Of a DNA stretch of 46,155 nucleotides, positions 5,152-42,568 are shown one piece after another. The translations under genes were made by a program, and so were the position numbers. Position 1 is the stretch's first letter. Each line of letters starts with the position of its first letter. Origin of the DNA: Planctomycetota bacterium (GTDB taxonomy: Bacteria; Planctomycetota; UBA1135; GCA-002686595); contig JBLHWM010000001.1 of assembly GCA_047629095.1 (NCBI GenBank), positions 1-46,155 of the forward strand, in the 5' to 3' direction. A model generated the notes under the pieces. That model searched no databases and had not been told where the DNA came from. It was given only the letters and a program-made list of their open reading frames with translations.

Positions 5152-6726
5152 ATGAGCAACGCGGACTACAAAAACGTCGAACAGATCGAGAGCACTCTCC
5201 CCCGCCCCTGGGAAGAGGAGACCACCTTCAACGACGTACTCTACGATTGGATGGGACGCGCCCCTTGGCTTGCCATCTCCGGTGCAGCCCACCTGCTAGC
5301 GTTCTTCGTACTTGCAGCCATTCCATGGGACGCCTTCAACAAGCAGGAACCACCCGCGATCACCGCTTCTGTGGAAGCCCCCGCCGACGAGCCCATCGAG
5401 GAGCCCGAAGAGGAGGAAATCCCAGAAGAGGAAGAGGAGATCGAGCCCATCGAGGAGCCGATCCTCAAGGACGCCGAGGTCTCGGACCACAACGAAGAGG
5501 ATGTGGACCAGCCCTTCGAGTCCATGGTCGGTGACCCCGACATGAACTCGGACTCACCCTTCGACTCCGACAACTCCAACGACGTCATGGGCATCGGCGG
5601 CGGCGCCGGTGGCAAGTTCGGTGGACGCCTCGGTGGCCGTAAGAACCTGCGCGCAGCCCACGGTAAGGGTCTCGACCAGGCTCTAAAGGACGCCCTTGAG
5701 TGGCTGAAGAACCACCAGGGCCCCGACGGCTCCTGGGACACGGACGAGTTCAACACCGAGTGCGGCAAGATCGGCAACACGGTCTGCGGCGACCCCGGTT
5801 ACCCCCAGCACGACGTCGGCTCTACGGGCCTGGCCCTACTGGCCTTCCTTGGCGAGGGCAACACCACCGACTCCGGTGACTACAAGGTCCAAGTGGCCAT
5901 GGGCATCAAGTGGCTGCGCAGCGTGCAGGACCCCGACTCGGGCCTGCTCGGCGACAAGTCCAGCCACGAATTCCTGTACAACCACGCCATCGGCACCCTC
6001 GCCCTGTGCGAAGCCTACTACGCGACCAAGAGTCCCCTGCTGAAGCGGACCTGCCAGAACGCGATCAACTACATCAACCGTGCTCGTAACCCCTACAGCG
6101 CTTGGCGCTACGACGAGCCGCCCATGGGCGCGAACGACACCTCCGTCACGGGCTGGATGATCTTCGCGATCAAGGCCGCCGAAGACGCCAAGCTGCAGAT
6201 CGACCCGGGTGCCTACGTCGGCGCTCGCGAGTGGCTCAAGGAAGTCACCGACGAGGCCAACGGCCGCGTGGGTTACAGCGAGTACGGCAACCTGTCCTCT
6301 CGTATCGTCGGGGTCAACGATCACTTCCCCGCCGAGAAGGGCGAGTCCATGACTGCTGTGGGCCTTCTGGTCCGCATGTTCATGGGCGAGACCGATCCCA
6401 AGGAGAGCCCGATCCTCAAGAAGCACGGCGACCTGATGCTGCGCACCCTTCCCGAGTGGGATCCGGACGGCTTCGGCAGTGACATGTACTACTGGTACTA
6501 CGGCTCCTACGCCATGTACCAGCTCGGTGGAACGCACTGGAAGAAGTGGGAGACTGCTCTTAAGAAGACCATCCTCGAAAACCAGCGCAAGGACGGCGAC
6601 GAGAAGGGTTCTTGGGACCCGATCGGACCCTGGGGCTACGCCGGCGGCCGGATTTACTCCACCGCGCTGATGGCGCTCTGCATCGAAGTCTACTTCCGCT
6701 ACGGCAAAGTTGCCGGCGCGCGCTAG
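5152..6726 (+). CDS. Membrane-anchored prenyltransferase/squalene-cyclase-repeat (alpha/alpha-toroid) protein, paralogue 1, with a TonB-like N-terminal anchor
   Basis: ATG at 5152 (MSNADYKNVEQIESTLPRPWEEE) chosen over the upstream ORF extension because paralogue 3 begins the same way. One TM helix (GRAPWLAISGAAHLLAFFVLAAIPW), a Glu/Pro-rich spacer, a Gly-rich tract GGGAGGKFGGRLGG, then QW-type repeats (HQGPDGSWD, NQRKDGDEKGSWDP) and DTSVTGWMIFAIKAAEDA, YYWYYGSYAMYQLGG. Confidence 0.85.
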   Translation: MSNADYKNVEQIESTLPRPWEEETTFNDVLYDWMGRAPWLAISGAAHLLAFFVLAAIPWDAFNKQEPPAITASVEAPADEPIEEPEEEEIPEEEEEIEPIEEPILKDAEVSDHNEEDVDQPFESMVGDPDMNSDSPFDSDNSNDVMGIGGGAGGKFGGRLGGRKNLRAAHGKGLDQALKDALEWLKNHQGPDGSWDTDEFNTECGKIGNTVCGDPGYPQHDVGSTGLALLAFLGEGNTTDSGDYKVQVAMGIKWLRSVQDPDSGLLGDKSSHEFLYNHAIGTLALCEAYYATKSPLLKRTCQNAINYINRARNPYSAWRYDEPPMGANDTSVTGWMIFAIKAAEDAKLQIDPGAYVGAREWLKEVTDEANGRVGYSEYGNLSSRIVGVNDHFPAEKGESMTAVGLLVRMFMGETDPKESPILKKHGDLMLRTLPEWDPDGFGSDMYYWYYGSYAMYQLGGTHWKKWETALKKTILENQRKDGDEKGSWDPIGPWGYAGGRIYSTALMALCIEVYFRYGKVAGAR

Positions 6727-6750
6727 ACGGTCGACAAGACACCAATCGAG

Positions 6751-6790
6751 AAGCCCCCGGGTCCGCAATGCGGGCCCGGGGGTTTCTTCG
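6751..6790 (+). terminator. Rho-independent terminator after paralogue 1
   Basis: The 13-bp GC-rich stem CCCCCGGGTCCGC / GCGGGCCCGGGGG (one G-U pair) has an AAT loop and is followed by TTTCTT. Confidence 0.8.
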
Positions 6791-6826
6791 TGGGCGGCAA
6801 GTCGATCGGGCGCTAGGATTCATGGC

Positions 6827-8041
6827 ATGAAGAACACGCTTTGGATTGGAAGTGCTCTCGCCCTCTCGCTCTCCTGGGTAACCGGCTGCCGCAGCGCCAA
6901 TCCTGTGCCCATCGAGAACGACACCCAACGCATAGTGGAAGAGCCCGCCGAGTCCAGCGCGCCCCTGGAACCTGGGCCGATCAAGGATGCACTGGACTGG
7001 CTCAGCGCTCACCAAAACGAAGACGGGCATTGGGATGCGGATCGCTTTGGCGACGAGTGCGCAAAGGCCAGCAAGACGACCTGCGCAAACCCGGGCTCGG
7101 TCCAGCACGATGTGGCCGCAACGGGACTCTCGCTTTTGGCTTTCCTGAGCGCTGGCCAGTCCGAATATTCTGGCGACTACCGAGACCAGGTTAGCGCTGC
7201 TCTGAGGTGGCTGCGCCATCAACAAGATCCACAGACCGGCCTCATTGGGGAGCGAGTCAGCCACGACTTCCTCTACGGCCACGCGATTGCAACCTACGCA
7301 TTGTGCGAAGCCAACAACGTTGTCCGGGGGAACCCGCTGATCAAGCGCGCCAGCAACCTTGGGATTAGATACATCGCCAACGCGCGCAATCCCTACGGTG
7401 CTTGGCGCTATGACGTGCCGCCAATCGGAGACAACGACACGTCGGTCACCGGCTGGATGATGCTTGCCCTCAAGTCGGCCGAGCGCGGACGGCTGCCCGT
7501 GGACCAAGACGCCTTCAAGGGAGCCCTCTCCTGGATCGACGAGGTCACGGACGAGCAAACCGGTCGGGTCGGCTACAACGAAGTCGGCAGTACCTCCGCG
7601 CGTATCGTCGGGCTCAACGAGCACTTCCCCCCGGAGTCCGGAGAGGCCATGACCGCCATCGGCCTTTCGATCCGTATGTCCCTTGGGCAGATGGAGCCAG
7701 AGCAGTACCCATTGATAGCGAAGGGCGGCGAACTGATCCTGCGCAGCCTACCCACGTGGGAGCAGCAAGAGTTCACCAGCGACATGTACTACTGGTACCA
7801 CGCGACCCGCGCCATGAACGAACTAGGTGGCACCTACGCCGAAAAGTGGAACGCCGCCATGTTGCAAGCCACCACCCAAGGCCAACAAACCTCCGGCCAC
7901 GCGAAGGGATCCTGGGATCCGGTTGGGGCCTGGGGTTCATCCGGCGGACGCGTCTACTCCACCGCGCTCATGACCATGTGTCTTTCATTCCAGCTCGAGG
8001 ATCCGCTCGCCGAAGCTCTCAGCGGTTTGGGTTACCTGTAA
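6827..8041 (+). CDS. Lipoprotein with a prenyltransferase/squalene-cyclase-repeat (alpha/alpha-toroid) domain, paralogue 2
   Basis: MKNTLWIGSALALSLSWVTGC is a signal peptide with a lipobox (V-T-G-C). The rest is collinear with paralogues 1 and 3 (HQNEDGHWD, DTSVTGWMMLALKSAE, YYWYHATRAMNELGG, GSWDPVGAWG, VYSTALM). Confidence 0.85.
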   Translation: MKNTLWIGSALALSLSWVTGCRSANPVPIENDTQRIVEEPAESSAPLEPGPIKDALDWLSAHQNEDGHWDADRFGDECAKASKTTCANPGSVQHDVAATGLSLLAFLSAGQSEYSGDYRDQVSAALRWLRHQQDPQTGLIGERVSHDFLYGHAIATYALCEANNVVRGNPLIKRASNLGIRYIANARNPYGAWRYDVPPIGDNDTSVTGWMMLALKSAERGRLPVDQDAFKGALSWIDEVTDEQTGRVGYNEVGSTSARIVGLNEHFPPESGEAMTAIGLSIRMSLGQMEPEQYPLIAKGGELILRSLPTWEQQEFTSDMYYWYHATRAMNELGGTYAEKWNAAMLQATTQGQQTSGHAKGSWDPVGAWGSSGGRVYSTALMTMCLSFQLEDPLAEALSGLGYL

Positions 8042-8122: not shown

Positions 8123-8279
8123 TCCCCGTTTGTTGTCAGGGCGATGTGAACCGAACTCTTGCCTGTCCGTTGTCTCTCTTGTCGCGGCCGCAAGGTTCGC
8201 GGCCGCAGGACACTCTTGGGGTGACTGGTCTCTGATTCCGAGCAGAGGTCCGCACTTGGGGAGACGGCCTTGGTTCCCA

Positions 8280-9845
8280 ATGACAACTTCAGACTACTCC
8301 ACAGTTCAGATTGAATCGACCCTTCCCAAGCCTTGGGAGGAAGAGCACTCCTTCAGTGAAGTGCTGTACGACTGGATGGGCCGCGCACCGTGGTTCGCCG
8401 TTTCAGGTGCCGCGCACTTGCTCGCTTTCTTCGTGCTGACGGCGATTCCCTGGGGCGCTTTCCATAGGGAAGAGGTGCCTGAAATCATCGGCACGATAGA
8501 GAAACCAGCACCCGACATCGTCGATGAGATCGAGCCCGAAGAGCTGCCCCTAATTCCCGAAGAAGCGGAGCTGGTGGAAGACCTGGACGACATGCTTTTG
8601 ACCGAGTCTGTGGACGAGATCTCCGACCAGGATGACCTTGCCTTCGATCCGGTCGTAGGCGAAGTCGCCAGTCCCTTCGAGTCCAATTTGGAAGCCATGA
8701 GTAACGAGATTGGCGTTGGCGGGCCAGGCGGCAATGGTGGAGACTTGGGCGGCGGCAAGGGCGGCAACGGTGGGCGCGGCGGAGTGCAGATGGAGCGCTC
8801 CCTGCATGATGCGCTCGAGTGGCTCAAGCATCACCAGAGCCCCGAGGGCTACTGGGATTCGGACGGCTTCTCCGACCACTGTGGTGGGATTGGCGGCTCG
8901 ATTTGTGAGGACCCCGGCTACGCACAGCACGATGTTGGCGTCACGGCGCTAGCGCTCTTGACCTTCATCGCCGCAGACAACACGACCAACCACGGTCCCT
9001 ACCAAGAGCAGGTCAAGCGGGGCATCAAGTGGCTGCGCACGATGCAAGATCCGGACTCGGGCCTCGTCGGCGAGAAGTCCAGCAAGGAGTTCCTGTACAA
9101 CCACGCGATCGCGACTCTCGCTTTGTGCGAAGCCTACTACGACAACGCGTCGCCGCTGCTGCGCATCACCAGCCAAAAGGCCGTCAACTACATCCAGATG
9201 GCGCGCAATCCCTACGGTGCCTGGCGCTATGACCAGCCTCCGATTGGCGCCAGTGACACCTCGGTCACGGGCTGGATGGTCTTCGCTTTGAAGGCCGCCG
9301 AAGACGCGAAACTCGATGTGGATCAAGGCGCCTTCGACGGTGCGATGGCCTGGTTGAACGCTGTCACCGACACGGCCAGCGGCCGCGTTGGCTACAGCGA
9401 ATACGGCAACCGGTCCTCGCGTATCACGGGCATCAACGATCACTACCCCGCGGACAAGGGCGAGGCCATGACGGCCGTCGGCTTGCTGTGCCGGATCTTC
9501 ATGGGCGAGAGCGACCTGCGCGAGTATCCGATCCTCAAAAAGCACGGCGATCTGATGATGCGCAGCTTGCCCGAATGGGACGACGACGGCTTTGGCAACG
9601 ACATGTACTACTGGTACTACGGTACCTACGCCATGTTCCAACTCGGGGGCAAGTACTGGAAGCAGTGGGAAGCTTCCCTGAAGACGACTCTGCTGGAGAA
9701 CCAGCGCAAGGATGGCGATGCCAAGGGATCCTGGGATCCGACCGGGCCCTGGGGATTCTCCGGCGGCCGGGTCTACTCGACGGCGATGATGGCCCTCTGC
9801 ATCGAGGTCTACTTCCGCTATCCCAACATCACAGGAGCAAGGTAA
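8280..9845 (+). CDS. Membrane-anchored prenyltransferase/squalene-cyclase-repeat (alpha/alpha-toroid) protein, paralogue 3, with a TonB-like N-terminal anchor
   Basis: ATG at 8280 (MTTSDYSTVQIESTLPKPWEEE) parallels the start of paralogue 1. TM helix GRAPWFAVSGAAHLLAFFVLTAIPW, acidic/Pro spacer, GGPGGNGGDLGGGKGGNGGRGG, then the same toroid motifs as paralogue 1. By eye about two thirds of the residues in that domain are identical to paralogue 1. Confidence 0.85.
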   Translation: MTTSDYSTVQIESTLPKPWEEEHSFSEVLYDWMGRAPWFAVSGAAHLLAFFVLTAIPWGAFHREEVPEIIGTIEKPAPDIVDEIEPEELPLIPEEAELVEDLDDMLLTESVDEISDQDDLAFDPVVGEVASPFESNLEAMSNEIGVGGPGGNGGDLGGGKGGNGGRGGVQMERSLHDALEWLKHHQSPEGYWDSDGFSDHCGGIGGSICEDPGYAQHDVGVTALALLTFIAADNTTNHGPYQEQVKRGIKWLRTMQDPDSGLVGEKSSKEFLYNHAIATLALCEAYYDNASPLLRITSQKAVNYIQMARNPYGAWRYDQPPIGASDTSVTGWMVFALKAAEDAKLDVDQGAFDGAMAWLNAVTDTASGRVGYSEYGNRSSRITGINDHYPADKGEAMTAVGLLCRIFMGESDLREYPILKKHGDLMMRSLPEWDDDGFGNDMYYWYYGTYAMFQLGGKYWKQWEASLKTTLLENQRKDGDAKGSWDPTGPWGFSGGRVYSTAMMALCIEVYFRYPNITGAR

Positions 9846-27659: not shown

Positions 27660-29123
27660 CTAAAAGCCGGTGGAAGACAGGGCGTTCGTCAGGGTCACGT
27701 TGTCAGGCACGGAGAAGTCCAACGTTGCCATCTGAGAGTAGATGGTTACGCCAGCGAGCCCAGTGGGCCAGGTCAAGTCAAGCACGGCACCGCCAGCTGC
27801 ATTCGTGTTGAAGTTGACCAGCTTGAAGTAGTTGGTGGTGTGGAGCACGCCACCCCAGAGGGGCACCGGGTTGTCCGTGGCGGAGAGCGCCAAGAAGACC
27901 GGGCTGCTAGCAGCAGCTTGGGAGAGGGTCAGGCGGGCGGGAGCACCGTCCGTCAGGTAGCCGAAGCCCTGAAGCTGCGGGATGCCGTTGGCGCCACTAG
28001 GAGAGTTGCCACCAAGGTTGCCCCAGCTGTTGGGCAGGGTCACGATGAACGAGTCACCGTAGCCGAAGAACATGGGCGGCTGTTGGACGAGGAAGGTGTG
28101 GCCGTCAAGGGAGACACCGGGCACGCGGTTGATCGTGTTGCCGGTCGGGAGAGTGATCCCGTAGTTTGCGAAGAGGTCGTTGATGTTCTGCCCTCCGGTC
28201 CACGCGGTCCAGATTAGGCCCGTATCGGGGGAACCGAAGGGACCGCTTGCGCCGCCACCAGCACCAACAGCCACGCGGCCATCAGCGGAGATGTCGAGCA
28301 TGCCCTCACCGGAATTGTTGAGGCCAGCTTCGCCTGCGGGGAAGTGCAGAGCGCCGCCGCTGGCGACAACAGGACCGTCAAAGGTGGTGCCCACGAAGGA
28401 TTCACCGGTGAAGTCCGTAGCGAAAACCTCGCCACCTCCAGTCGGGTTTGCGACGGTCAGGTAGGGGAAGGAGAGAGTTCCTGCTTGGTCCCAAACGGCG
28501 CCAGAACGGCTAGTTGTCTGAATCCAACCAGCACTGACCAAACCGTCGCCAGAGGTCGCGGAGACCCTAGCGCTAGGCTGAGCAGTGGGAACGATGAACG
28601 AACTCGTGTCGAGCAGTTGGTACGTGTTGTTGACGATATCCCAGCGAAGAGGCCACAGATTGCAGCCCTGAACGGCGCTGACGCCGCCGACAGTTCCAGC
28701 CCAGTTGACGGAGCTGTTTGTCGAGGTAATGCTGCAACCATCGGCGTAACCCGGAGGGAACTGTGCGGTGGTGCTGCCACTGCCCGCGCCAGCTTGCCAG
28801 AAGCCGGGGGCGGCAGCGCCGATGTTGGGATCCTCAAAAGCACCAGCGATGATGCTGCCGTCGAAGTTCATGCGGCCGGCGAAGGACCCAATGTTCGTCA
28901 TCGTGCCGGGCAGAGTGATCTGGTTACCGGCCGGGTTCCAAGGGGCGACCAATCGAGCGGCACCGCTGACATCCTCACCCGAAACAGCGGTTCCGCTTGG
29001 CGAGAGGTGGTAGGCCGTGAAGCCGCTGGGCAGCGGAGTGATGGTTGCTTGAGCTGCGGCTGTGGTCGTCGCAAGGGTGAAGGCACCGAGCGTGATCAGT
29101 GAGGTAGAAAGGAAGGGCTTCAT
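27660..29123 (-). CDS. Secreted Gly/Thr/Ala-rich repeat protein, possibly HAF-like extracellular repeats (tentative)
   Basis: Signal peptide MKPFLSTSLITLGAFTLATTTAAAQA. Recurring segments such as SATSGDGLVSAGW, ISADGRVAVGAGG...GLIWTAWTGGQNINDL and VSLDGHTFLV. No catalytic motif seen. Confidence 0.6.
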   Translation of the reverse strand: MKPFLSTSLITLGAFTLATTTAAAQATITPLPSGFTAYHLSPSGTAVSGEDVSGAARLVAPWNPAGNQITLPGTMTNIGSFAGRMNFDGSIIAGAFEDPNIGAAAPGFWQAGAGSGSTTAQFPPGYADGCSITSTNSSVNWAGTVGGVSAVQGCNLWPLRWDIVNNTYQLLDTSSFIVPTAQPSARVSATSGDGLVSAGWIQTTSRSGAVWDQAGTLSFPYLTVANPTGGGEVFATDFTGESFVGTTFDGPVVASGGALHFPAGEAGLNNSGEGMLDISADGRVAVGAGGGASGPFGSPDTGLIWTAWTGGQNINDLFANYGITLPTGNTINRVPGVSLDGHTFLVQQPPMFFGYGDSFIVTLPNSWGNLGGNSPSGANGIPQLQGFGYLTDGAPARLTLSQAAASSPVFLALSATDNPVPLWGGVLHTTNYFKLVNFNTNAAGGAVLDLTWPTGLAGVTIYSQMATLDFSVPDNVTLTNALSSTGF

Positions 29124-29380
29124 TTGGTGTTCTCGGGTTCGAAAGGGGCCAGGTCCAGGCCCGTCGGAGTTCATCAATCCACGTACCTCTCTTGAGGTAG
29201 ACGCGAAACATCATTAGTTCGAACTCAACTCTACATCGAGATCCGAATAGAGGGGGAGATTTTCCCCAGGGAAGCTCCCGGCTTGTAAATTCCATAACTT
29301 AGGCGCAGGAATCAAGGTGCCCCATCCACCGAACCGTCGCTCTGGGCCAAGCGTCGAGCTTCCAAACCAAATGCGCCTCC

Positions 29381-36032: not shown

Positions 36033-38720
36033 TTAGCGTGCGGCGCCAAGCGCCTCCCACTCCTCGGTGGTCATTAGAATGTCACGGCGGGTTCCGCCGA
36101 GATACGGGCCGATGAGGCCCATGGATTGGAGTTCGTCGAGGATGGCCGTGGCTTCTTGGAAGTCCATGTCGAAGTTGCGCTGCAACATCGAGACCGCCAC
36201 CCGGCCTTGATCTAGGAAGAGTGCGCCACTGCGGAAGATCTTCTCCTCCTGGGAGAGTTCAACCACGGGCTCGTTCGGAGCCTGCTCGGGCTCCGATTCA
36301 GACTTGGCCTCGTCGGGCACAGCAACCGCCTCTTGGGAAGGTAGCACATACGACTCCTCTTCCTCGGCAGCCTCAGCTTCAGCCTTGGCAGCAGCTTGCT
36401 CGGCAGCCTTGGCCTCAGCCTTGGCCTCAGCCTTGGCAGCTTTCGCTTCTGCCTTCGCCTCGGCTTTCGCAGCCTTGGCCTCAGCATCCGCCTTCGCTTT
36501 TAGCTCGGCCTTTTCAGCGGCCTTAGCTTCCGCCTCAGCTTCTGCAGCCTTGGCTTCCGCCTCAGCCTCTGCGGCCTTGGCTTCTTCAGCGGCCTTAGCT
36601 TCCGCCTCAGCCTCTGCAGCCTTGGCTTCTTCTGCGGCCTTGGCTTCCGCCTCAGCCTCTGCGGCCTTAGCTTTTTCAGCGGCCTTAGCTTCCGCCTCAG
36701 CCTCTGCAGCCTTGGCTGCTTCTGCGGCCTTAGCTTCCGCCTCAGCCTCTGCGGCCTTAGCTTTTTCAGCGGCCTTAGCTTCCGCCTCAGCCTCTGCAGC
36801 CTTAGCTTCCTCTTCCGCCTTGACCTTGGCGGCCTTAGCTACAGCTTTCGCCTCGGCAGCCTGTGCTTCTTCAGCTGCCTTGGCCGCGGCCAATGCCGCG
36901 GCTTCCCTTGCGGCCTTAGCTTCGGCTTTTGCCTTAGCTTCAGTCGCAGCTTGATCTTCGGCCTTGGCCTGGGCGGCTGCCTCTTCGGCCTCGATGGCTT
37001 CGAGCTCCCGGAGCAATGCCATGTCCTCTTCGGTCTCCGCTTCCTTAGAAGGGTCTTCGGCGACAGTCGAGGCCTCGGAAGCTTGGTCCATCTCTACGAG
37101 AGACTTCTCTTCTACTTCAAACCGGCTAACGGGCTGAGCGGGCTGAGCGGGCTCATCGGAGTCGAACAGGCCCGGCTGCTCCCATGCGGGCCTGGGAGTC
37201 GAGTTCTCCACTTCGTCAAGATCCCCAAGGATCTCATCGTCGTCCTCGAGGCTTGATTCGATGCCCTCTTCGATTTCCGCGGATGGGGACTCCACTTCGG
37301 CTAGCTCGTCTTCGTCGAGCTCGGCGACTAGGTCGTCCTCGAGCTCGGCTGCTTCTTCCTCTTCGTACTCTTCCTCGTCCGCTTCGTCTTCGTCAAGCTC
37401 TGCGACTAGATCGTCCTCAAGCTCGGCTTCCTCTTCCTCTTCCTCTTCCTCTTCGTACTCTTCTTCGTCCTCGTCGAGTTCGGCGACTAGGTCGTCCTCA
37501 AGCTCGGCTTCCTCTTCCTCTTCCTCTTCGTACTCTTCTTCGTCTTCGTCGAGTTCGGCGACTAGGTCGCCCTCGAGCTCGGCTGCTTCTTCCCCTTCCT
37601 CTTCTTCCTCTTCGTATTCTTCTTCGTCTGCTTCGTCTTCGTCGAGTTCGGCGACTAGGTCGTCCTCAAGCTCGGCTGCCTCTTCGTCCTCGTACTCTTC
37701 TTCGTCCGCTTCGTCTTCGTCGAGTTCGGCGACTAGGTCGTCCTCAAGCACAGCGGCATCTTCGGGCTCCTCGGCTGCGGTCTCCCAGCTAGGGGCGCTG
37801 GGGATGGACGCCTCGAGCACAGTCACGCTTGCGTCACCCGAATCGAGGGGCCTTACTTCGTCTTCGTCGGTGCGAGTCCAGACTCCGTCGGCGAGCTTAC
37901 CCGTGACGGCACGGGCTTTCGGGGTGCCAGCGGAATCCGCGGGCTTGGTGTCAGCCAGATTTGAGCCAAGCGGCTTGGGCTGGGTTGCGCCTTCGGTAGA
38001 CCCTTTTTGGTCTGCCGTAGATGAACGGTCACTTTTGGATTCGGCTGGGGCATGATTCTCTTGGGTGGGCGCGCCGAGGGGGCGAACCCCATCGGGTAGT
38101 TCGCCTCGTGCGCGCTGCTCGTGAACGGTGACTCCCGGCGCAGCGGCGATCGGAGCGGGCAGTTCGGGGAAGAGTGCCTCGGCTTCCGCCTCGGACACTC
38201 CATCAGTCTCTACCTCACTCAATGCGGCAGCAACGGAACTCGACTCCACCACTTTTGACCTTTTTTGAGGCATGGGAGCTCCAATCGAGAGCCATGCCCC
38301 AAGAAATACGACTCCAAATGCCAGCAAAGCGTTCATGATGCCGCCGCCGATGCCGCCAAGGGCACCGGGGAGGAAGCCGCCGAGTGCGCCACCGGCCGCA
38401 ACGCTAAACACGCCGACCAAGAGGCTCAGGGCGAGTCCACCGCCGGCAATCATCGCTAGGGGCATGGAGAGCTTCAAGGCACCCGGGCGCAGGAACATGA
38501 TCCCGCCCAGCACAGTGCAGCCCGCCGACAGACCGAAGGCCGCGATGTGCCCAAGTCCAAGGATCAATGCACCGATCGCCGCCGTGGAAAGGTTGCCGGC
38601 ATCACCGGAGTCCGAGTACATGGACATGCCCGCGGACACCGCGCAGAATGCGCCGCCCAGGAAAAAAGCCATGGACAGGAGTTCGTAGCCAATGTGCTTA
38701 CTGTTCTTCGAATTACTCAT
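36033..38720 (-). CDS. FtsK-like membrane protein lacking the motor: polytopic N-terminus, long repeat-rich linker, FtsK-gamma-like C-terminal winged helix
   Basis: ATG at 38720 overlaps the ftsK stop (ATGAGTAA). The N-terminal roughly 150 aa form 4-5 Gly/Ala-rich TM helices. The C-terminal segment RVAVSMLQRNFDMDFQEATAILDELQSMGLIGPYLGGTRRDIL aligns with the gamma domain of the neighbouring FtsK. I found no Walker A or B motif anywhere in the protein. Confidence 0.8.
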   Translation of the reverse strand: MSNSKNSKHIGYELLSMAFFLGGAFCAVSAGMSMYSDSGDAGNLSTAAIGALILGLGHIAAFGLSAGCTVLGGIMFLRPGALKLSMPLAMIAGGGLALSLLVGVFSVAAGGALGGFLPGALGGIGGGIMNALLAFGVVFLGAWLSIGAPMPQKRSKVVESSSVAAALSEVETDGVSEAEAEALFPELPAPIAAAPGVTVHEQRARGELPDGVRPLGAPTQENHAPAESKSDRSSTADQKGSTEGATQPKPLGSNLADTKPADSAGTPKARAVTGKLADGVWTRTDEDEVRPLDSGDASVTVLEASIPSAPSWETAAEEPEDAAVLEDDLVAELDEDEADEEEYEDEEAAELEDDLVAELDEDEADEEEYEEEEEEGEEAAELEGDLVAELDEDEEEYEEEEEEEAELEDDLVAELDEDEEEYEEEEEEEEEAELEDDLVAELDEDEADEEEYEEEEAAELEDDLVAELDEDELAEVESPSAEIEEGIESSLEDDDEILGDLDEVENSTPRPAWEQPGLFDSDEPAQPAQPVSRFEVEEKSLVEMDQASEASTVAEDPSKEAETEEDMALLRELEAIEAEEAAAQAKAEDQAATEAKAKAEAKAAREAAALAAAKAAEEAQAAEAKAVAKAAKVKAEEEAKAAEAEAEAKAAEKAKAAEAEAEAKAAEAAKAAEAEAEAKAAEKAKAAEAEAEAKAAEEAKAAEAEAEAKAAEEAKAAEAEAEAKAAEAEAEAKAAEKAELKAKADAEAKAAKAEAKAEAKAAKAEAKAEAKAAEQAAAKAEAEAAEEEESYVLPSQEAVAVPDEAKSESEPEQAPNEPVVELSQEEKIFRSGALFLDQGRVAVSMLQRNFDMDFQEATAILDELQSMGLIGPYLGGTRRDILMTTEEWEALGAAR
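36515..36815 (-). repeat. In-frame tandem repeat, about 45-nt (15-codon) unit encoding AEAEAEAKAAE(K/E/A)AKA, about 6-7 copies
   Basis: The unit GGCCTTAGCTTCCGCCTCAGCCTCTGCAGCCTTGGCTTCTTCTGC recurs with small variations. It sits within a larger Ala/Glu/Lys-rich tract at about 36355-37000. Confidence 0.85.
37295..37760 (-). repeat. In-frame tandem repeat, six variable-length units (about 75-93 nt) encoding (E/A)ELEDDLVAELDEDE(ADE)EEYEEEE...
   Basis: The core GCGACTAG(G/A)TCGTCCTC recurs near 37325, 37403, 37484, 37559, 37651 and 37730. Unit length differs through the number of Glu codons. Confidence 0.85.
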
Positions 38721-41289
38721 CTGTTTCACCTGCGGTTACGCCTTGCATTTCATCCCAGTCCTCGACGGTCAAAAAGACCTCCCGAGCCTTGCTTCCTTTG
38801 TGGGGCCCGACGATGCCGGACTCCTCCATCATCTCAAGCAGCCTGGTCCCGCGGGTATAGCCCACGCCCAGGGAGCGCTGGAGTAGGCTCGCGGAGCCAC
38901 GCTTGGCCTTCACGATGACGCGCACTGCCTCATCCCAAAGTTCGTCGCGCTCGGCGGGATCCTGGTCACCGGGCTTGCCGGCTTTCGGGGTACCCGTTGC
39001 ACTCTGCACGAGCTCTTGATTGAAGTTCTGCGCCGAGTCCTTCGTGACAAAGTCGACAATGGCCTGGAGCTCGTCATCCTCGGCCCAAGCACCCTGGACG
39101 CGAATCAACGCCGACGAAGCCGGCGGAGCGTAGAGCATGTCGCCGCCACCGAGCAGCTTCTCTGCGCCACCCTCGTCGAGGATCACCCGGCTGTCGACTT
39201 TACTTGCGACCTGGAACGCGATCCGGGTCGGCAGGTTGCCCTTCAGCACGCCGGTGATCACATCCGTCGAGGGACGCTGGGTCGCCACGATCACGTGGAT
39301 GCCAACGGCTCGTGACTTTTGGGCCAGACGCGTGATCGCCATCTCGGCCTCTTTCTTGGAGACCATCATCAGGTCGGCGAGCTCGTCGATCACAATCACG
39401 ATGTAAGGCACCGCGCGTGGCGTACGCTCTTCGCTGAAGTTCTCGCCGAGCTTCTCGCGCAGCTTCTCCTCGCCGAGCTTGTTGTAGCCCTTGATGTTCT
39501 TCACACCCGCGTCCTTGAACAGCTCGTAGCGGCCGTCCATCTTCTCGCAGGCCCACAGCAGCACATTCGTCGCCTGGCGCGCATCGGTCACCACGGGAAG
39601 CATCATGTGCGGCACGCTGGTGAACATCTGCAGCTCGACCATCTTGGGGTCGATCAGCACCCACTGCACCTCGTGGGGAGAGCGCGTCAGCAGCATCGAT
39701 GCAAGGATCGTGTTGATGCAGACGGACTTGCCCGAACCCGTGGTTCCGGCGATCAGCAGGTGTGGCATCTTGGCCAGGTCGCCGATAATCGGCTCGCCCT
39801 CGGCGTCCATGCCCAGGAAGAGCGGCAGGGCGTACTTCTTCATGTCGTACGCCTCTTGGCGCACGAGCTCGCGCAGGGTCACGATGGCGCGGGTCTTGTT
39901 CGGAATCTCGATGCCAATGGTCGAGCGGCCCGGGATCGGCGCGATGATGCGAACGCTCTTTGCGAGCAGGGCTCCCGCGATCTCCTGGGACAGCTGGGTG
40001 ACCTTGTTCATGCGCGTACCCTGGGCTACTTCGAGTTCGAAGAGCGTGATCGCAGGACCAACTCGGGCGCCAACGACGTGGGCTTCGACGCGGAAAGAGG
40101 CAAGCGCGTTCTCAAGCTTAGTTGCGGCCTCTTCGAGCTCCTTCTCGTTAGCGTTCGAGACGCCAACGCCTTTCTTCAGTAAGGAGAGAGGGGGCAGCTT
40201 CCAGGGACCGGCGGGTGGAGTGACAGGCTCGAGGGGCAGGGACGGCTGCGTGCTCGTCTTGACCACGGGCTTCTTGCGGGGCTTCGGAGTGACGACAACC
40301 TCTTCGGGCTCGTCCTCTTCTTCCTCGTATTCCCACTCCTCATCCTCATCGTCCTCTTCCTCCTCGTCTTCCTCTTCCTCGACTTCCTCGTATTCCCACT
40401 CCTCGTCCTCTCCTAGCTCTTCGTCCTCATCCTCTTCCTCGTCATCCACTTCAACGACAGGCTTCTTCGCCGCTTTCTTGGCTGGCTTCTTCTTAGCGGG
40501 TTTCTTAGCGCCGTCCTTGATGTCGGTGCCGCGGATGAAGCGCCAGAGCCCAGCGAAGAGTCCGACGGTCCACTCGGAAACCGCAGCGACAAAGCCCTTG
40601 CCTCGCTTCTCGCTCTGCTCCGCAAACCAGTCGCGCATGGAGCCAAGGGCCGGGAAGAAGGCCATCTCCGTGGCGAGCATGAACGAGACCAGGGAGACCA
40701 GGCCCATGATCATCCACATGCCCGGGCCACCGAGCTTGGTCACCAGGAATTCGACGGTCGAAGAGGCGAAGTAGCCGCCCGGCCCATAGGGCGTGGTGCT
40801 TGAGACGCCGTAGCTCTCGCCAAAGGCAAGTTGGAAGAGGTAGGCGCTTGAGACCAAGAAGCACAAACCGCCGAAGACACGCAACACGGGGACGCTGAGC
40901 TCCTTTTGAGTCACGATCACGAAACCCCAAGCGCACATGAGGAAGCCAATCATGTAGCCCGCCCACCCGAAGAGGATGAACACATAATCAGCGAGATAGA
41001 AGCCGGTCTGGCCACCCCAGTTGTGACCCTCGGCTAGAGCATCGTCGATGGGCTTGTAGAAGGTCGCCATGGAGACCACGAGCCACGCCGCGAATCCCAA
41101 CATGAGCAGGCCCTTGATCTCTTGAAGATGCTCGCCGACCTCTGGCTCAGCGGCCTTCTTCTTGGAGGCTTTCTTCTTAGCCTTCTTCTTGGACTTCGAA
41201 GCGCCGCCACCGAATAGGCCCATAAGCCAGTCGTTGGTTTGCTCGAGGAGGCTAGACCCCTTCTTCTTTTTTGCCTTTCGCTTCGCCAA
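38713..41289 (-). CDS. ftsK: DNA translocase FtsK
   Basis: Lys-rich N-terminus, 4TM region, acidic linker, motor with Walker A GTTGSGKSV and VIVIDELADLM, C-terminal gamma domain GSASLLQRSLGVGYTRGTRLLEMMEESGIVGP. TTG start at 41289. Confidence 0.93.
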   Translation of the reverse strand: MAKRKAKKKKGSSLLEQTNDWLMGLFGGGASKSKKKAKKKASKKKAAEPEVGEHLQEIKGLLMLGFAAWLVVSMATFYKPIDDALAEGHNWGGQTGFYLADYVFILFGWAGYMIGFLMCAWGFVIVTQKELSVPVLRVFGGLCFLVSSAYLFQLAFGESYGVSSTTPYGPGGYFASSTVEFLVTKLGGPGMWMIMGLVSLVSFMLATEMAFFPALGSMRDWFAEQSEKRGKGFVAAVSEWTVGLFAGLWRFIRGTDIKDGAKKPAKKKPAKKAAKKPVVEVDDEEEDEDEELGEDEEWEYEEVEEEEDEEEEDDEDEEWEYEEEEDEPEEVVVTPKPRKKPVVKTSTQPSLPLEPVTPPAGPWKLPPLSLLKKGVGVSNANEKELEEAATKLENALASFRVEAHVVGARVGPAITLFELEVAQGTRMNKVTQLSQEIAGALLAKSVRIIAPIPGRSTIGIEIPNKTRAIVTLRELVRQEAYDMKKYALPLFLGMDAEGEPIIGDLAKMPHLLIAGTTGSGKSVCINTILASMLLTRSPHEVQWVLIDPKMVELQMFTSVPHMMLPVVTDARQATNVLLWACEKMDGRYELFKDAGVKNIKGYNKLGEEKLREKLGENFSEERTPRAVPYIVIVIDELADLMMVSKKEAEMAITRLAQKSRAVGIHVIVATQRPSTDVITGVLKGNLPTRIAFQVASKVDSRVILDEGGAEKLLGGGDMLYAPPASSALIRVQGAWAEDDELQAIVDFVTKDSAQNFNQELVQSATGTPKAGKPGDQDPAERDELWDEAVRVIVKAKRGSASLLQRSLGVGYTRGTRLLEMMEESGIVGPHKGSKAREVFLTVEDWDEMQGVTAGETDE

Positions 41290-41301: not shown

Positions 41302-42012
41302 CTACTCCGCCTGAGCGGAGCTAGAGTGATGGAGTTGGACTAGGGCGCGAGCAACGTCGCGCTTGGTCTTGTTCTTGATGTCGACTCGGCTGCCATCCTT
41401 GCCCAGGATGGTGACCGTGGTCCGATTCGACCCGAGGGCCGTCTCGTTGTTGAGCACGATGTAGTCCGCGCTCTTCCTAATTAACTTTGCCAGAGCACGC
41501 TTCAGCCCCGAGCCGGTCTCGAGGGCAAAGCCCACCACCAGCCGGCGACCCTTGCGGCGTCCGACACCTGCCAGAATATCGGGGTTCTTGACCAACTCCA
41601 AGGATGCAACTTCGTCCCCGCCATCCTTTGCTCGCCACTTCCCAGAAAGTCTGCGTTTAGGGCGCCAATCGCCTACCGCCGCGGCCATAAACAGGGCGTC
41701 GGCGCCCTTCTTGCCAAAGCTGCCCTTGGCCCGAGATTCCGATCCAAGGAACGCAGTTTTGACCGCAGCCAGCATGTCGCGGGCGCTCTCGACGTCGACG
41801 CGGGTCACCCCCGGCGGAGTTTCCAGGGTCACGGGACCAGCGATCAGGATCACCTGGTCCCCGCGCTCAGCGGCGGCCCGGGCAATCTCAAAACCCATCT
41901 TGCCGCTGGAGTCGTTCGAGAGGTAGCGCACCGGATCGATGCGCTCCCGGGTTGGGCCCGCGGTGATGACGACACGGCGCGGAGCCGATTGTTTTGTCTT
42001 AGCGGCGCGCAC
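41302..42012 (-). CDS. coaB: Phosphopantothenate--cysteine ligase (CoaB domain), a separate reading frame from CoaC
   Basis: VVITAGPTRERIDPVRYLSNDSSGKMGFEIA motif. A candidate GTG start at 42012 lies 14 nt after the coaC stop. The longer ORF up to 42153 overlaps coaC out of frame. Confidence 0.7.
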   Translation of the reverse strand: MRAAKTKQSAPRRVVITAGPTRERIDPVRYLSNDSSGKMGFEIARAAAERGDQVILIAGPVTLETPPGVTRVDVESARDMLAAVKTAFLGSESRAKGSFGKKGADALFMAAAVGDWRPKRRLSGKWRAKDGGDEVASLELVKNPDILAGVGRRKGRRLVVGFALETGSGLKRALAKLIRKSADYIVLNNETALGSNRTTVTILGKDGSRVDIKNKTKRDVARALVQLHHSSSAQAE

Positions 42013-42025
42013 TTGCCCCGCGGGA

Positions 42026-42568
42026 CTAGGCACGAAGCAGGTCCCCAAGGCGCGCGAGCACCTCAGCCGTCTCGAGGAAGCGGCCCGGTCCCTCATCGCC
42101 GCAAGCGACCTCGCCCACGTCCGGCTGCTCCACGCGCCAACCGTCGCTCGCAAGGGTCGCCAAGTTCCGCTGGACCGCGGGCTGGCCGAACATGTGCGGG
42201 TTCATCGCCGGGATCAGAACCCGGGGAACATCGGCGGGGATCGCGAGGGTGAGCGTCGTCAAGAGGTTCGGCGCGAGGCCGCACGCGAGTTGGCCAATCA
42301 GGTCGGCCGTGGCGGGCGCAATCAGCAAGAGCTCCGTGCGGCGCGCGAGGTCGATGTGATCCATGGCGCTATTGCGCCCGGGACCGTATTCGTGAACGTG
42401 GGCGGGCTGGCCCGTCAGGGCTTCTAGCAGCTGGGGCGAGATCAGCTCGGCGGCGTGTGGAGTCAAAACGGCGGTGACCTCGTGGCCTGCGCCGCGCAGC
42501 TTACTCGCGAGGTCAGCGGCCTTAGCCACGGCGGCGGATGCGCTAATTCCAAGTAGGATACGTGTCAT
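42026..42568 (-). CDS. coaC: Phosphopantothenoylcysteine decarboxylase (CoaC flavoprotein domain)
   Basis: RILLGISASAAVAKAADL...LIAPATADLIGQLACGLA...PAMNPHMF...ACGDEGPGR. It ends at a TAG just where fused CoaBC proteins continue into the ligase domain. Confidence 0.85.
   Translation of the reverse strand: MTRILLGISASAAVAKAADLASKLRGAGHEVTAVLTPHAAELISPQLLEALTGQPAHVHEYGPGRNSAMDHIDLARRTELLLIAPATADLIGQLACGLAPNLLTTLTLAIPADVPRVLIPAMNPHMFGQPAVQRNLATLASDGWRVEQPDVGEVACGDEGPGRFLETAEVLARLGDLLRA

Follow-up and report, generated by a model that had tools for sequence, protein, structure and literature searches.

What does a protein do that carries a membrane anchor at one end, the gamma winged helix of the DNA translocase FtsK at the other, and no motor in between? 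The question is raised by a stretch of DNA of 46,155 nucleotides from a Planctomycetota bacterium (assembly GCA_047629095.1, contig JBLHWM010000001.1, positions 1 to 46,155), hereafter the window, in which an 895-residue gene of this kind follows a complete ftsK (Table 1). The protein is best read as a conserved, FtsK-derived membrane protein without the alpha/beta DNA motor, that is, a motorless membrane adaptor working with FtsK. A first-pass annotation of the window, made from the sequence alone, had proposed a motorless FtsK paralogue coupled to ftsK, and this central proposal is borne out by the gamma match, by the missing motor and by conservation of the gene pair in at least 114 species-level genomes. 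The plan of the window protein comprises four transmembrane (TM) helices, an acidic disordered linker, a helix rich in Glu, Lys and Ala (E/K/A), and the gamma-like winged helix.

The two genes are joined at their codons. The ATG of the paralogue (38720-38718) and the TAA of ftsK (38715-38713) overlap by 8 nt within ...AGGTGAAACAGATGAGTAA, also written AGGTGAAACAG-ATG-AG-TAA; the list of open reading frames (ORFs) offers an alternative GTG start at 38729. The first-pass annotation had described this arrangement as a large ORF directly downstream of a complete ftsK, its ATG overlapping the stop codon, and the ATGAGTAA junction and the four Pfam FtsK domains of the upstream gene agree with it. 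In all related loci that include the upstream region (48/48), the paralogue directly follows ftsK. Start and stop codons overlap in 34 of these 48 loci, by 8 nt in 25 (as ATGAnTGA/TAA), by 4 nt in four, by 11 nt in four and by 14 nt in one, and a Shine-Dalgarno-like purine motif precedes the paralogue start in 29/48. Since the start codon of the paralogue overlaps the ftsK stop, the two proteins are predicted to come from one transcript.

Several searches for a motor gave negative results. The Pfam scan of the paralogue returned FtsK_gamma as its sole domain (amino acids [aa] 833-884, E 4.9e-10, 39.4 bits against a cut-off of 30.6), and the NCBIfam scan returned nothing. At E<=1, neither database yielded a match of the window protein to FtsK_SpoIIIE (PF01580), FtsK_alpha (PF17854) or any P-loop, and none of 49 family members matched FtsK_SpoIIIE or FtsK_alpha in Pfam, whereas FtsK_alpha is found in the neighbouring FtsK at E 6.9e-30. 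A regular expression for the Walker A motif found none in the window protein and one among 52 family members, an incidental match inside the gamma wing, against 41 of 41 cognate FtsKs. When the paralogue was aligned with the neighbouring FtsK by BLASTP, gamma alone aligned (30% identity, E 2e-7).

Structure prediction pointed the same way. A full-length AlphaFold2 (AF2) model, built on an alignment of 80 family sequences, contained no globular domain within aa 150-820; its confidence, as the predicted local distance difference test score (pLDDT), is given by segment in Table 1. Foldseek comparison of this model with the PDB found FtsK gamma and other winged helices only, with no ATPase fold; it found nothing for the TM bundle or the linker, and no solved FtsK N-domain was among the matches. 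A cryptic ATPase was therefore rejected on the combined absence of a Pfam or NCBIfam match, a Walker A motif, a globular mid-region and a Foldseek ATPase match, and the earlier statement that no RecA-like motor or Walker motif lies between the termini stands. Because the alpha and beta domains (RecA-like, Walker A/B) are entirely missing, the paralogue cannot pump DNA. The roughly 650 aa of low-complexity repeats noted earlier between the two ends are likewise there, as tandem repeats called by Tandem Repeats Finder (TRF) in a middle that is partly acidic and disordered and partly E/K/A-helical.

The identity of the C-terminal domain is well founded. All 49 members tested pass Pfam FtsK_gamma, and a sequence search of the PDB found FtsK gamma entries only (2j5p, 2j5o, 2ve8). 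A separate AF2 model of the last 80 aa (pLDDT 89.1) has the order helix-helix-helix-wing-helix; its top Foldseek match is the gamma domain of Escherichia coli FtsK (2j5p; 57 columns at a root mean square deviation of 1.5 A; TM-score 0.64 normalised to the query and 0.72 to the target), followed by that of Pseudomonas aeruginosa, free and bound to the FtsK-orienting polar sequences, KOPS (2ve8, 2ve9). The claim that the last 70 or so residues are an FtsK gamma winged helix, made from an alignment with the neighbouring FtsK, is thus upheld by Pfam, BLASTP and the predicted structure. The hidden Markov model (HMM) of the family gamma scores cognate FtsK gammas at a median of 43 bits and those of E. 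coli and P. aeruginosa at 22 and 21 bits, from sequences that were typed in; in a PDB search with another profile the values were 20.8 bits for E. coli and 19.1-19.2 bits for P. aeruginosa. An unverified sequence of the gamma domain of Bacillus subtilis SpoIIIE scored 60 bits against the family HMM; no conclusion was drawn from this value, which speaks for caution in calling the family gamma closest to that of its own FtsK.

The surface of the domain has been remodelled. A column-by-column comparison of 52 family members with 41 cognate FtsKs showed that seven basic positions (R9, K13, K15, R32, R35, K50 and K53), conserved in 33-41 of the 41 FtsKs and invariant at four, are occupied in the family by C, E/D, G/Q, variable residues at the next two, L and Q, respectively. 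The cognate recognition helix reads G-Y-T-R-A-S-R, with G29-Y30-T31 invariant, and that of the family D-F-(D/K)-x-A-(T/C)-x, with D29 in 47/52, F30 in 52/52 and position 31 variable. In the window, D-F-Q-E-A-T-A faces G-Y-T-R-G-T-R of the neighbouring FtsK, a replacement that the first-pass annotation had reported for this one protein and that holds across the family. Residues invariant in the family only are V17, V19, M21, Q41, Y49 and G52, with R54 in 41/52; altogether 20-24 residues of the family gamma are invariant, and its signature is RVAVSMLQ(R/K)...(M/L)DF...LD.LQ..GLIGPY(L)GG.RRDIL. The median net charge is -2 (as low as -8), compared with 0 in cognate FtsKs. An invariant wing arginine is common to FtsK and the family, and in both a C-terminal T-x-E-x-W helix follows the wing.

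In E. coli, the same gamma surface binds KOPS and XerD (PMC5052618). The peptide 1289-RQFRIGYNR-1297 alone activates XerD; R1289 is critical, Q1288 too contacts E184 of XerD, and the activating contacts comprise Q1288, R1289, R1292, I1293, G1294 and N1296 (PMC5052618, Table 1). In the family, Q23 is invariant and position 24 is R or K, which correspond to Q1288 and R1289, and an aromatic residue occupies the F1291 position. The G1294 position is D in 47/52 and that of N1296 is D, K or E, while R1292 is already G in cognate FtsKs; R35, at the E. coli R1300 position and invariant in cognate FtsKs, is lost. The KOPS-reading residues of E. coli we take to be N1296, R1300 and E1303. With both the basic face and the G-Y-T-R block replaced relative to 41 cognate FtsKs, the gamma domain appears to lack the residues that read KOPS, as had been suspected. 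The conservation pattern points to strong purifying selection on a new surface together with loss of the basic face, and since these occur together they indicate a probable change of ligand, most simply to a protein. The first-pass suggestion of a protein-interaction, decoy or tethering module is a hypothesis, and with the Q-R pair retained some canonical gamma function may persist.

The N-terminal domain is less securely related to FtsK. Hydrophobicity and the AF2 model agree on four hydrophobic segments, and AF2 places an extra short helix (aa 107-121) between TM3 and TM4. Across 48 members Lys and Arg are enriched in the N-terminal tail, in loop 2 (TM2-TM3) and in the stretch after TM4, and on the strength of this positive-inside pattern we infer an FtsK-type N-in/C-in topology, which would place the linker and gamma in the cytoplasm. 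Pfam FtsK_4TM (PF13491) does not match the window protein at E<=1, nor any of 49 members at E<=0.01. An hhalign comparison of family N-termini with cognate FtsK N-termini gave a score of 36.3 (41% probability, E 2.8e-4) and was colinear for TM1-TM3 over 92 columns; the controls scored lower, with 20 block-shuffles at or below 31.0 and reversed controls at or below 20.5. Homology to FtsK_4TM is thus weakly suggested, TM sequences being compositionally biased. Of the FtsK-like four-helix N-terminus proposed earlier, the four TM helices stand, but the Pfam match is absent and the hhalign support weak; the three FtsK models applied to the ORF gave, in sum, a significant match for FtsK_gamma and none for FtsK_4TM or FtsK_SpoIIIE. 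When word-indexed searches were run with the first 188 aa or with an N-terminal profile of 48 sequences, a single fragment was found (P0001), the index being swamped by low-complexity TM words.

The linker evolves quickly, and its length ranges from 269 to 794 aa in the family, with a median of 26% D/E versus 7% K/R. The paralogues of the window and of Engelhardtia mirabilis Pla133 align by BLASTP in gamma only (59% identity), whereas the FtsK motor is 72% identical between the window and E. mirabilis (aligned aa 376-854, 479 columns). In the window, AF2 gives the acidic tandem repeats pLDDT values mostly below 50, with a weakly predicted helix at aa 395-440. The E/K/A region contains 45/90-nt tandem repeats at 36539-36822 (unit x6, AEAEAEAKAAEKAKA-type, that is AEAKA-type, 89-94% matches by TRF); the 90-nt unit is called x3.2 at 94% matches, and all repeats of the paralogue fall at 80-94%. 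An acidic linker is general in the family but a long E/K/A helix is not. The canonical FtsK of the window has low-complexity stretches of its own, namely an N-terminal tail rich in Lys, the stretch KKPAKK and, in its linker, an acidic tandem repeat of EEWEYEE type (40309-40452, 41152-41193), and these acidic W/Y repeats resemble the linker repeats of the paralogue.

Short motifs persist within this variable linker. After TM4, V175, E179 and L183 of the juxtamembrane motif are nearly invariant, as are R203, G206, P209 and G211 of the SPYP motif (48-80 members). The most conserved linker motif has the family form RPSWEQxx(L/M)F(D/E)EPVDAYGTPLxLVExLR; its E313 is invariant and P307 and W312 nearly so in 80 members, and the motif is found in most loci (for example at aa 338 in L013 and aa 467 in L024). 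The 78-nt acidic repeat of the window seems to have been amplified from the LVxEL part of this third motif. The Q-x-x-[LM]-F of the same motif has the form of a beta-sliding-clamp-binding pentapeptide, which we regard as a lead only. Recruitment scaffolds typically have such conserved short motifs set in a charged, disordered tether.

The gene is not private to this genome. A scan of one genome per species with family-specific gamma motifs found it in at least 114 species-level genomes; in the 80 of these that were listed, all carriers are labelled Planctomycetota or unclassified, except one contig binned as "uncultured Chloroflexi bacterium" (L078, CADEHD010000377.1, 1539 nt), most likely a binning error given the labels of all other listed carriers. 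An intact full-length gene of 509-1034 aa is present at about 50 loci, where four TM segments fall within roughly the first 160 residues and gamma closes the protein. In cultured E. mirabilis Pla133, whose genome is complete, ftsK (945 aa) precedes a 922-aa member (QDU69686.1/WP_419191888.1) whose ATG overlaps the ftsK stop by 8 nt. Besides, 1.84 billion representative proteins were searched exhaustively by HMMER with the profile of the family gamma, which gave 498 clusters (50% identity) at E<=1e-10; in the best 150 of these 498 the match lies at the extreme C-terminus in every case, the long entries span 470-980 aa and the shorter ones look like fragments. A survey of relatives, suggested with the first-pass annotation, therefore recovers the pair of ftsK and motorless paralogue widely, in one case from a complete genome.

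Databases name these proteins inconsistently. The Pla133 protein is a "DNA translocase FtsK" at NCBI and an "FtsK-like domain-containing protein" in UniProt, and copies in metagenome-assembled genomes are "hypothetical protein". The first name is wrong in function, and fragments of the family are filed as stand-alone FtsK/SpoIIIE proteins, so that annotation is one area in which the present description matters. A literature search turned up no account of this family or of any motorless FtsK paralogue, and the family, undescribed in the literature searched, is best described as an FtsK-family derivative without the motor.

The repeats are hard to assemble, and the repeat number in the window may for that reason be inexact; the gene itself is real. 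Its frame is intact in the window, in the ~50 loci and in the complete Pla133 genome, which answers the concern raised with the first-pass annotation that mis-assembly of repeats had created the ORF. In short-read assemblies of relatives the gene is broken, N-gapped or frameshifted in the repeats (L001 8555-10273, L003 3405-5911, L006 8535-10300), contigs L002, L007, L008 and L009 begin inside the repeat region, and spurious antisense genes are called over it (for example L001 8596-9318 and L003 3525-3869). The 3' ends of broken genes have been deposited as "FtsK/SpoIIIE" proteins of 60-130 aa. Stand-alone gamma proteins of 63-132 aa (P0002-P0020) were accordingly considered and rejected, as their contigs show N-gaps, contig ends and one frameshift inside the repeats of full-length genes. 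Two long-read contigs of 0.8-1.0 Mb, L012 (JADJQU010000001.1) and L064 (JADJLZ010000002.1), have gamma ORFs of 294 and 178 aa, which are probably due to frameshift errors in the repeats rather than to genes that are really short; on a third long contig, L039, the gene is intact at 829 aa.

The family likely arose when ftsK was duplicated in tandem and the motor was then deleted from one copy. This is argued by the tandem position on the same strand, by the shared succession of anchor, acidic linker and gamma, by W/Y-containing acidic runs in both linkers and by the T-x-E-x-W helix after the wing in both proteins. The hhalign alignment, colinear over TM1-TM3 and above all controls, also favors an FtsK-like origin.

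As to function, we put the probability at about one half that the paralogue is made along with FtsK, shares the cytoplasmic membrane with it and serves as a long adaptor, binding partners in segregation or division through its linker motifs and gamma-derived domain. Both proteins would be located at the division site, where association of the paralogous TM domains may hold the flexible adaptor to FtsK. The remodelled gamma and the linker motifs would bind partner proteins instead of KOPS DNA, and the paralogue could thereby recruit or regulate segregation or division factors in a lineage without FtsZ. Several points weigh against this account. For the TM domain, homology to FtsK_4TM is at most tentative, given the absence of Pfam matches (0/49) and an hhalign probability of 41%, and the positive-inside rule is the one argument for a cytoplasmic linker. 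The retained Q-R pair, a key XerD contact, and the wing arginines make canonical Xer activation or residual DNA binding conceivable. Furthermore, the window protein carries degenerate versions of two family motifs, and the partners, like a physical link to FtsK beyond gene order, are hypothetical.

A bolder form of the adaptor account, which must be called doubtful, would make the protein a core, FtsK-partnered scaffold of FtsZ-independent division and segregation in Planctomycetota of the Saltatorellus clade. It would co-assemble with FtsK through the paralogous four-helix domains, its polyanionic, length-tunable linker would keep DNA or other components at a set distance, and the remodelled gamma and RPSWEQxxLF...EPVDAYGTPLxLVExLR would dock partners, a Xer recombinase or the replisome clamp being candidates. 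If true, it would represent a new kind of divisome organiser made from a stripped-down DNA pump.

Two rival explanations keep nucleic acid or recombination as the target of the winged helix. In one, which seems unlikely, the protein is a DNA tether whose winged helix binds a non-KOPS sequence, or binds non-specifically, and anchors the chromosome to the membrane or division site through the spacer. The fold is that of a DNA-binding winged helix, other DNA-binding winged helix-turn-helix proteins appear among the Foldseek matches, the wing keeps the invariant arginine of FtsK and gains R54 in 41/52, and Lys-rich stretches occur just upstream of gamma in some members such as Engelhardtia; however, the seven conserved basic positions are gone, the recognition helix is now D-F-x-x-A-T/C-x, the domain is net acidic and a linker with 26% D/E should repel DNA. 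In the other, which we rate as distinctly improbable, a membrane-tethered gamma-like domain activates or sequesters a XerD-type recombinase through the Q-R pair without translocation. Dimer resolution would then be gated, or become independent of the FtsK motor. Activation of XerD by E. coli gamma 1289-1297 alone, with R1289 critical (PMC5052618), makes this conceivable, as do the invariant Q23, R/K24 and the aromatic residue at the F1291 position, and Xer activators that stand alone and have no relation to FtsK are known, for example XafT of TLC-phi (PMC9226527). Against it, the rest of the nine-residue activating peptide is altered (G1294 to D, N1296 to D/K/E), the cognate FtsK retains a canonical gamma able to do the job, and no xer gene occurs in the window or in the conserved neighbourhood.

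An envelope-spanning structural protein with a TolA-like linker and C-terminus in the periplasm, its connection to FtsK being an accident of the operon, is very unlikely. The ~220 aa of E/K/A repeat helices recall TolA domain II, and the short helix at aa 107-121 leaves a five-segment topology conceivable; yet the positive-inside pattern in 48 members favors four TM helices with both ends inside, neither the window protein nor the 49 members match TolA or another periplasmic domain, the long helix is not family-wide as the acidic linker is, and a periplasmic gamma winged helix would be without precedent. Membership in TolA was rejected on the missing family match, the four TM helices and a charge pattern that puts the C-terminus in the cytoplasm. 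Hardly credible is a decaying duplicate or assembly artefact, in which repeats were mis-assembled or a functionless copy of ftsK was pseudogenised. Relatives' short-read assemblies do break or carry N-gaps in this gene, and repeat units 89-94% identical leave the copy number in the window uncertain, but the window, ~50 independent loci and a complete genome all keep the ORF open, gamma and the motifs appear to be under strong purifying selection, and the start/stop overlap is conserved. These intact frames, the selection and the conserved overlap effectively refute pseudogene status.

The adaptor account can be placed beside known systems. The paralogue and the FtsK/SpoIIIE translocases are alike in having a four-helix anchor at the N-terminus, gamma at the C-terminus and, between these ends, a long linker of acidic low-complexity sequence, and the cognate FtsK lies on the same strand in the same operon; they differ in that the alpha and beta motor domains are entirely missing from the paralogue, the gamma surface for KOPS reading and XerD activation is remodelled and the TM domain is too diverged for Pfam FtsK_4TM. 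Compared with isolated FtsK gammas (E. coli 2j5p; P. aeruginosa 2ve8, 2ve9), the three-helix winged-helix fold is common, as are the S-x-L-Q-R of helix 2 and the G-x-x-G-P...R-[DE]-[IV]-L wing. E. coli RQFRIGYNR corresponds to R-N-F-D-M-D-F-Q-E in the window; the arginine of the R1300 position and the helix-1 and wing lysines (K13, K15, K50, K53) are lost, and of the E. coli XerD contacts Q1288 and R1289 alone are kept. XafT, from a TLC-phi satellite phage of Vibrio, is a free-standing Xer activation factor (PMC9226527, PMC6744903). It offers a functional analogy only, that of a gamma-like regulatory activity supplied without a motor by a non-FtsK protein; unlike the paralogue, XafT is small, soluble and phage-encoded, lacks a linker and a membrane anchor, and is not noted as FtsK-related in the abstracts of these two papers.

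SmeA-SffA of Streptomyces coelicolor is a further analogy and no more. SmeA is a small membrane protein whose gene shares an operon with that of an FtsK/SpoIIIE-family ATPase; it targets this partner ATPase to septa, and like the paralogue it is co-transcribed with an FtsK-family translocase; unlike it, SmeA is small, is not derived from FtsK, has no gamma and is encoded upstream of its ATPase. TolA domain II is similar in composition to the ~220 aa of E/K/A repeats, and the window paralogue shares with this domain and with ER/K single alpha-helix spacers the long continuous helices predicted for it. It differs from TolA in the missing family match, in a helix that is not family-wide and in its probable cytoplasmic location.

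These results may be of interest for the FtsZ-less division of Planctomycetota. Three cultured strains of the 'Saltatorellota' clade are without FtsZ and most canonical division proteins, and divide by budding and binary fission and change shape (bioRxiv 10.1101/817700); E. mirabilis, a member of this clade, is among the carriers of the family. Only three dcw genes are conserved throughout the PVC superphylum. One of them, ftsK, is the sole essential dcw gene in Planctopirus limnophila, and the FtsK of Chlamydia organises an FtsZ-less divisome, as cited in the same source (PMC12283558). The paralogue, being conserved, FtsK-derived and coupled to ftsK, is a candidate for such FtsZ-independent division, as a component that has had no name. 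Cultured Pla133, with its complete genome, gives a concrete starting point for experiments, and the family suggests that evolution can turn a gamma winged helix from KOPS reading to another use.

The neighbourhood of the gene gives no clue to a partner, since neither xer nor a division gene other than ftsK was found in the window. The window carries the housekeeping genes mfd, def, ribF, katG, tsaD, carA, priA, a gene for a SpoIIE-type phosphatase, pgpA, pgsA, rimO, coaB/C and gmk. To say that the paralogue is embedded with division and phospholipid genes, as the first-pass annotation did, was right for ftsK and an overstatement otherwise, as the other neighbours are housekeeping genes (rimO, pgsA, pgpA, coaB/C, gmk, priA).

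Table 1. Features of the motorless FtsK paralogue and its junction with ftsK; positions are those of the window, residues those of the paralogue unless stated.
Feature	Position	Strand	Residues	Description and evidence
Motorless FtsK paralogue, whole gene	36033..38720	(-)	895 aa from ATG	ORF list, Pfam, AF2
Canonical ftsK, upstream partner	38713..41289	(-)	858 aa (FtsK)	Pfam FtsK_4TM, FtsK_alpha, FtsK_SpoIIIE, FtsK_gamma
ATGAGTAA junction	38713..38720	(-)		Paralogue ATG and ftsK stop overlap, 8 nt
AGGTGA, Shine-Dalgarno-like	38726..38731	(-)		5 nt upstream of ATG, inside ftsK 3' end
N-terminal membrane domain	38277..38702	(-)	7-148	Four TM helices, inferred N-in/C-in
Membrane helical bundle			7-146	AF2 pLDDT 90-97
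Juxtamembrane motif GV(S/T)xAEAxALxP	38166..38204	(-)	173-185	GVSEAEAEALFPE, after TM4
Motif (SPYP)xDVRxxGxIPxGARPL	38073..38126	(-)	199-216	VHEQRARGELPDGVRPLG; SPYP part degenerate in window
First P-S-W-E motif copy with acidic LVxEL tail	37722..37802	(-)	307-333	PSAPSWETAAEEPEDAAVLEDDLVAEL
Acidic tandem repeats, 78-nt unit x5.7	37306..37763	(-)		...AELEDDLVAELDEDEADEEEYEEEE..., also ...ELEDDLVAELDEDEADEEEYEEEE...; TRF
Second W-E-Q motif copy with Q-x-x-L-F	37146..37196	(-)	509-525	PRPAWEQPGLFDSDEP; WEQPGLF at 512-518
No confident structure except weak acidic helix			~150-560	AF2 pLDDT mostly <50
E/K/A-rich repeat region	36375..37031	(-)	564-704 and 715-782	Two long alpha-helices predicted
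Two long E/K/A helices			564-704 and 715-782	AF2 pLDDT ~80-91 to aa 690, ~53-80 beyond
C-terminal gamma-like winged helix	36039..36251	(-)	824-894	Pfam PF09397, PDB, AF2, Foldseek
Compact helix-helix-helix-wing-helix domain			824-894	Full-length AF2 pLDDT >90

Some minor observations concern other genes of the window. An ORF of 505 aa without a Pfam match lies downstream of priA (27660-29177, minus strand) and is a conserved unknown, as proteins of 486-531 aa without a Pfam match occur at the same position in L001 (16969-18477), L003 (12785-14245) and L007 (7129-8724). The adjacent plus-strand genes at 6710-8041 and 8130-9845 encode proteins with weak SQHop_cyclase_C matches (terpenoid-cyclase/prenyltransferase-like repeats) and are preceded by an ORF of 566 aa without a Pfam match. 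Additionally, CoaBC is split into coaC (Flavoprotein) and coaB (DFP) at 41302-42153 and 42026-42568 on the minus strand, as in L001 and L006; the longest coaB ORF overlaps coaC by ~130 nt, so the real coaB start is probably further downstream.

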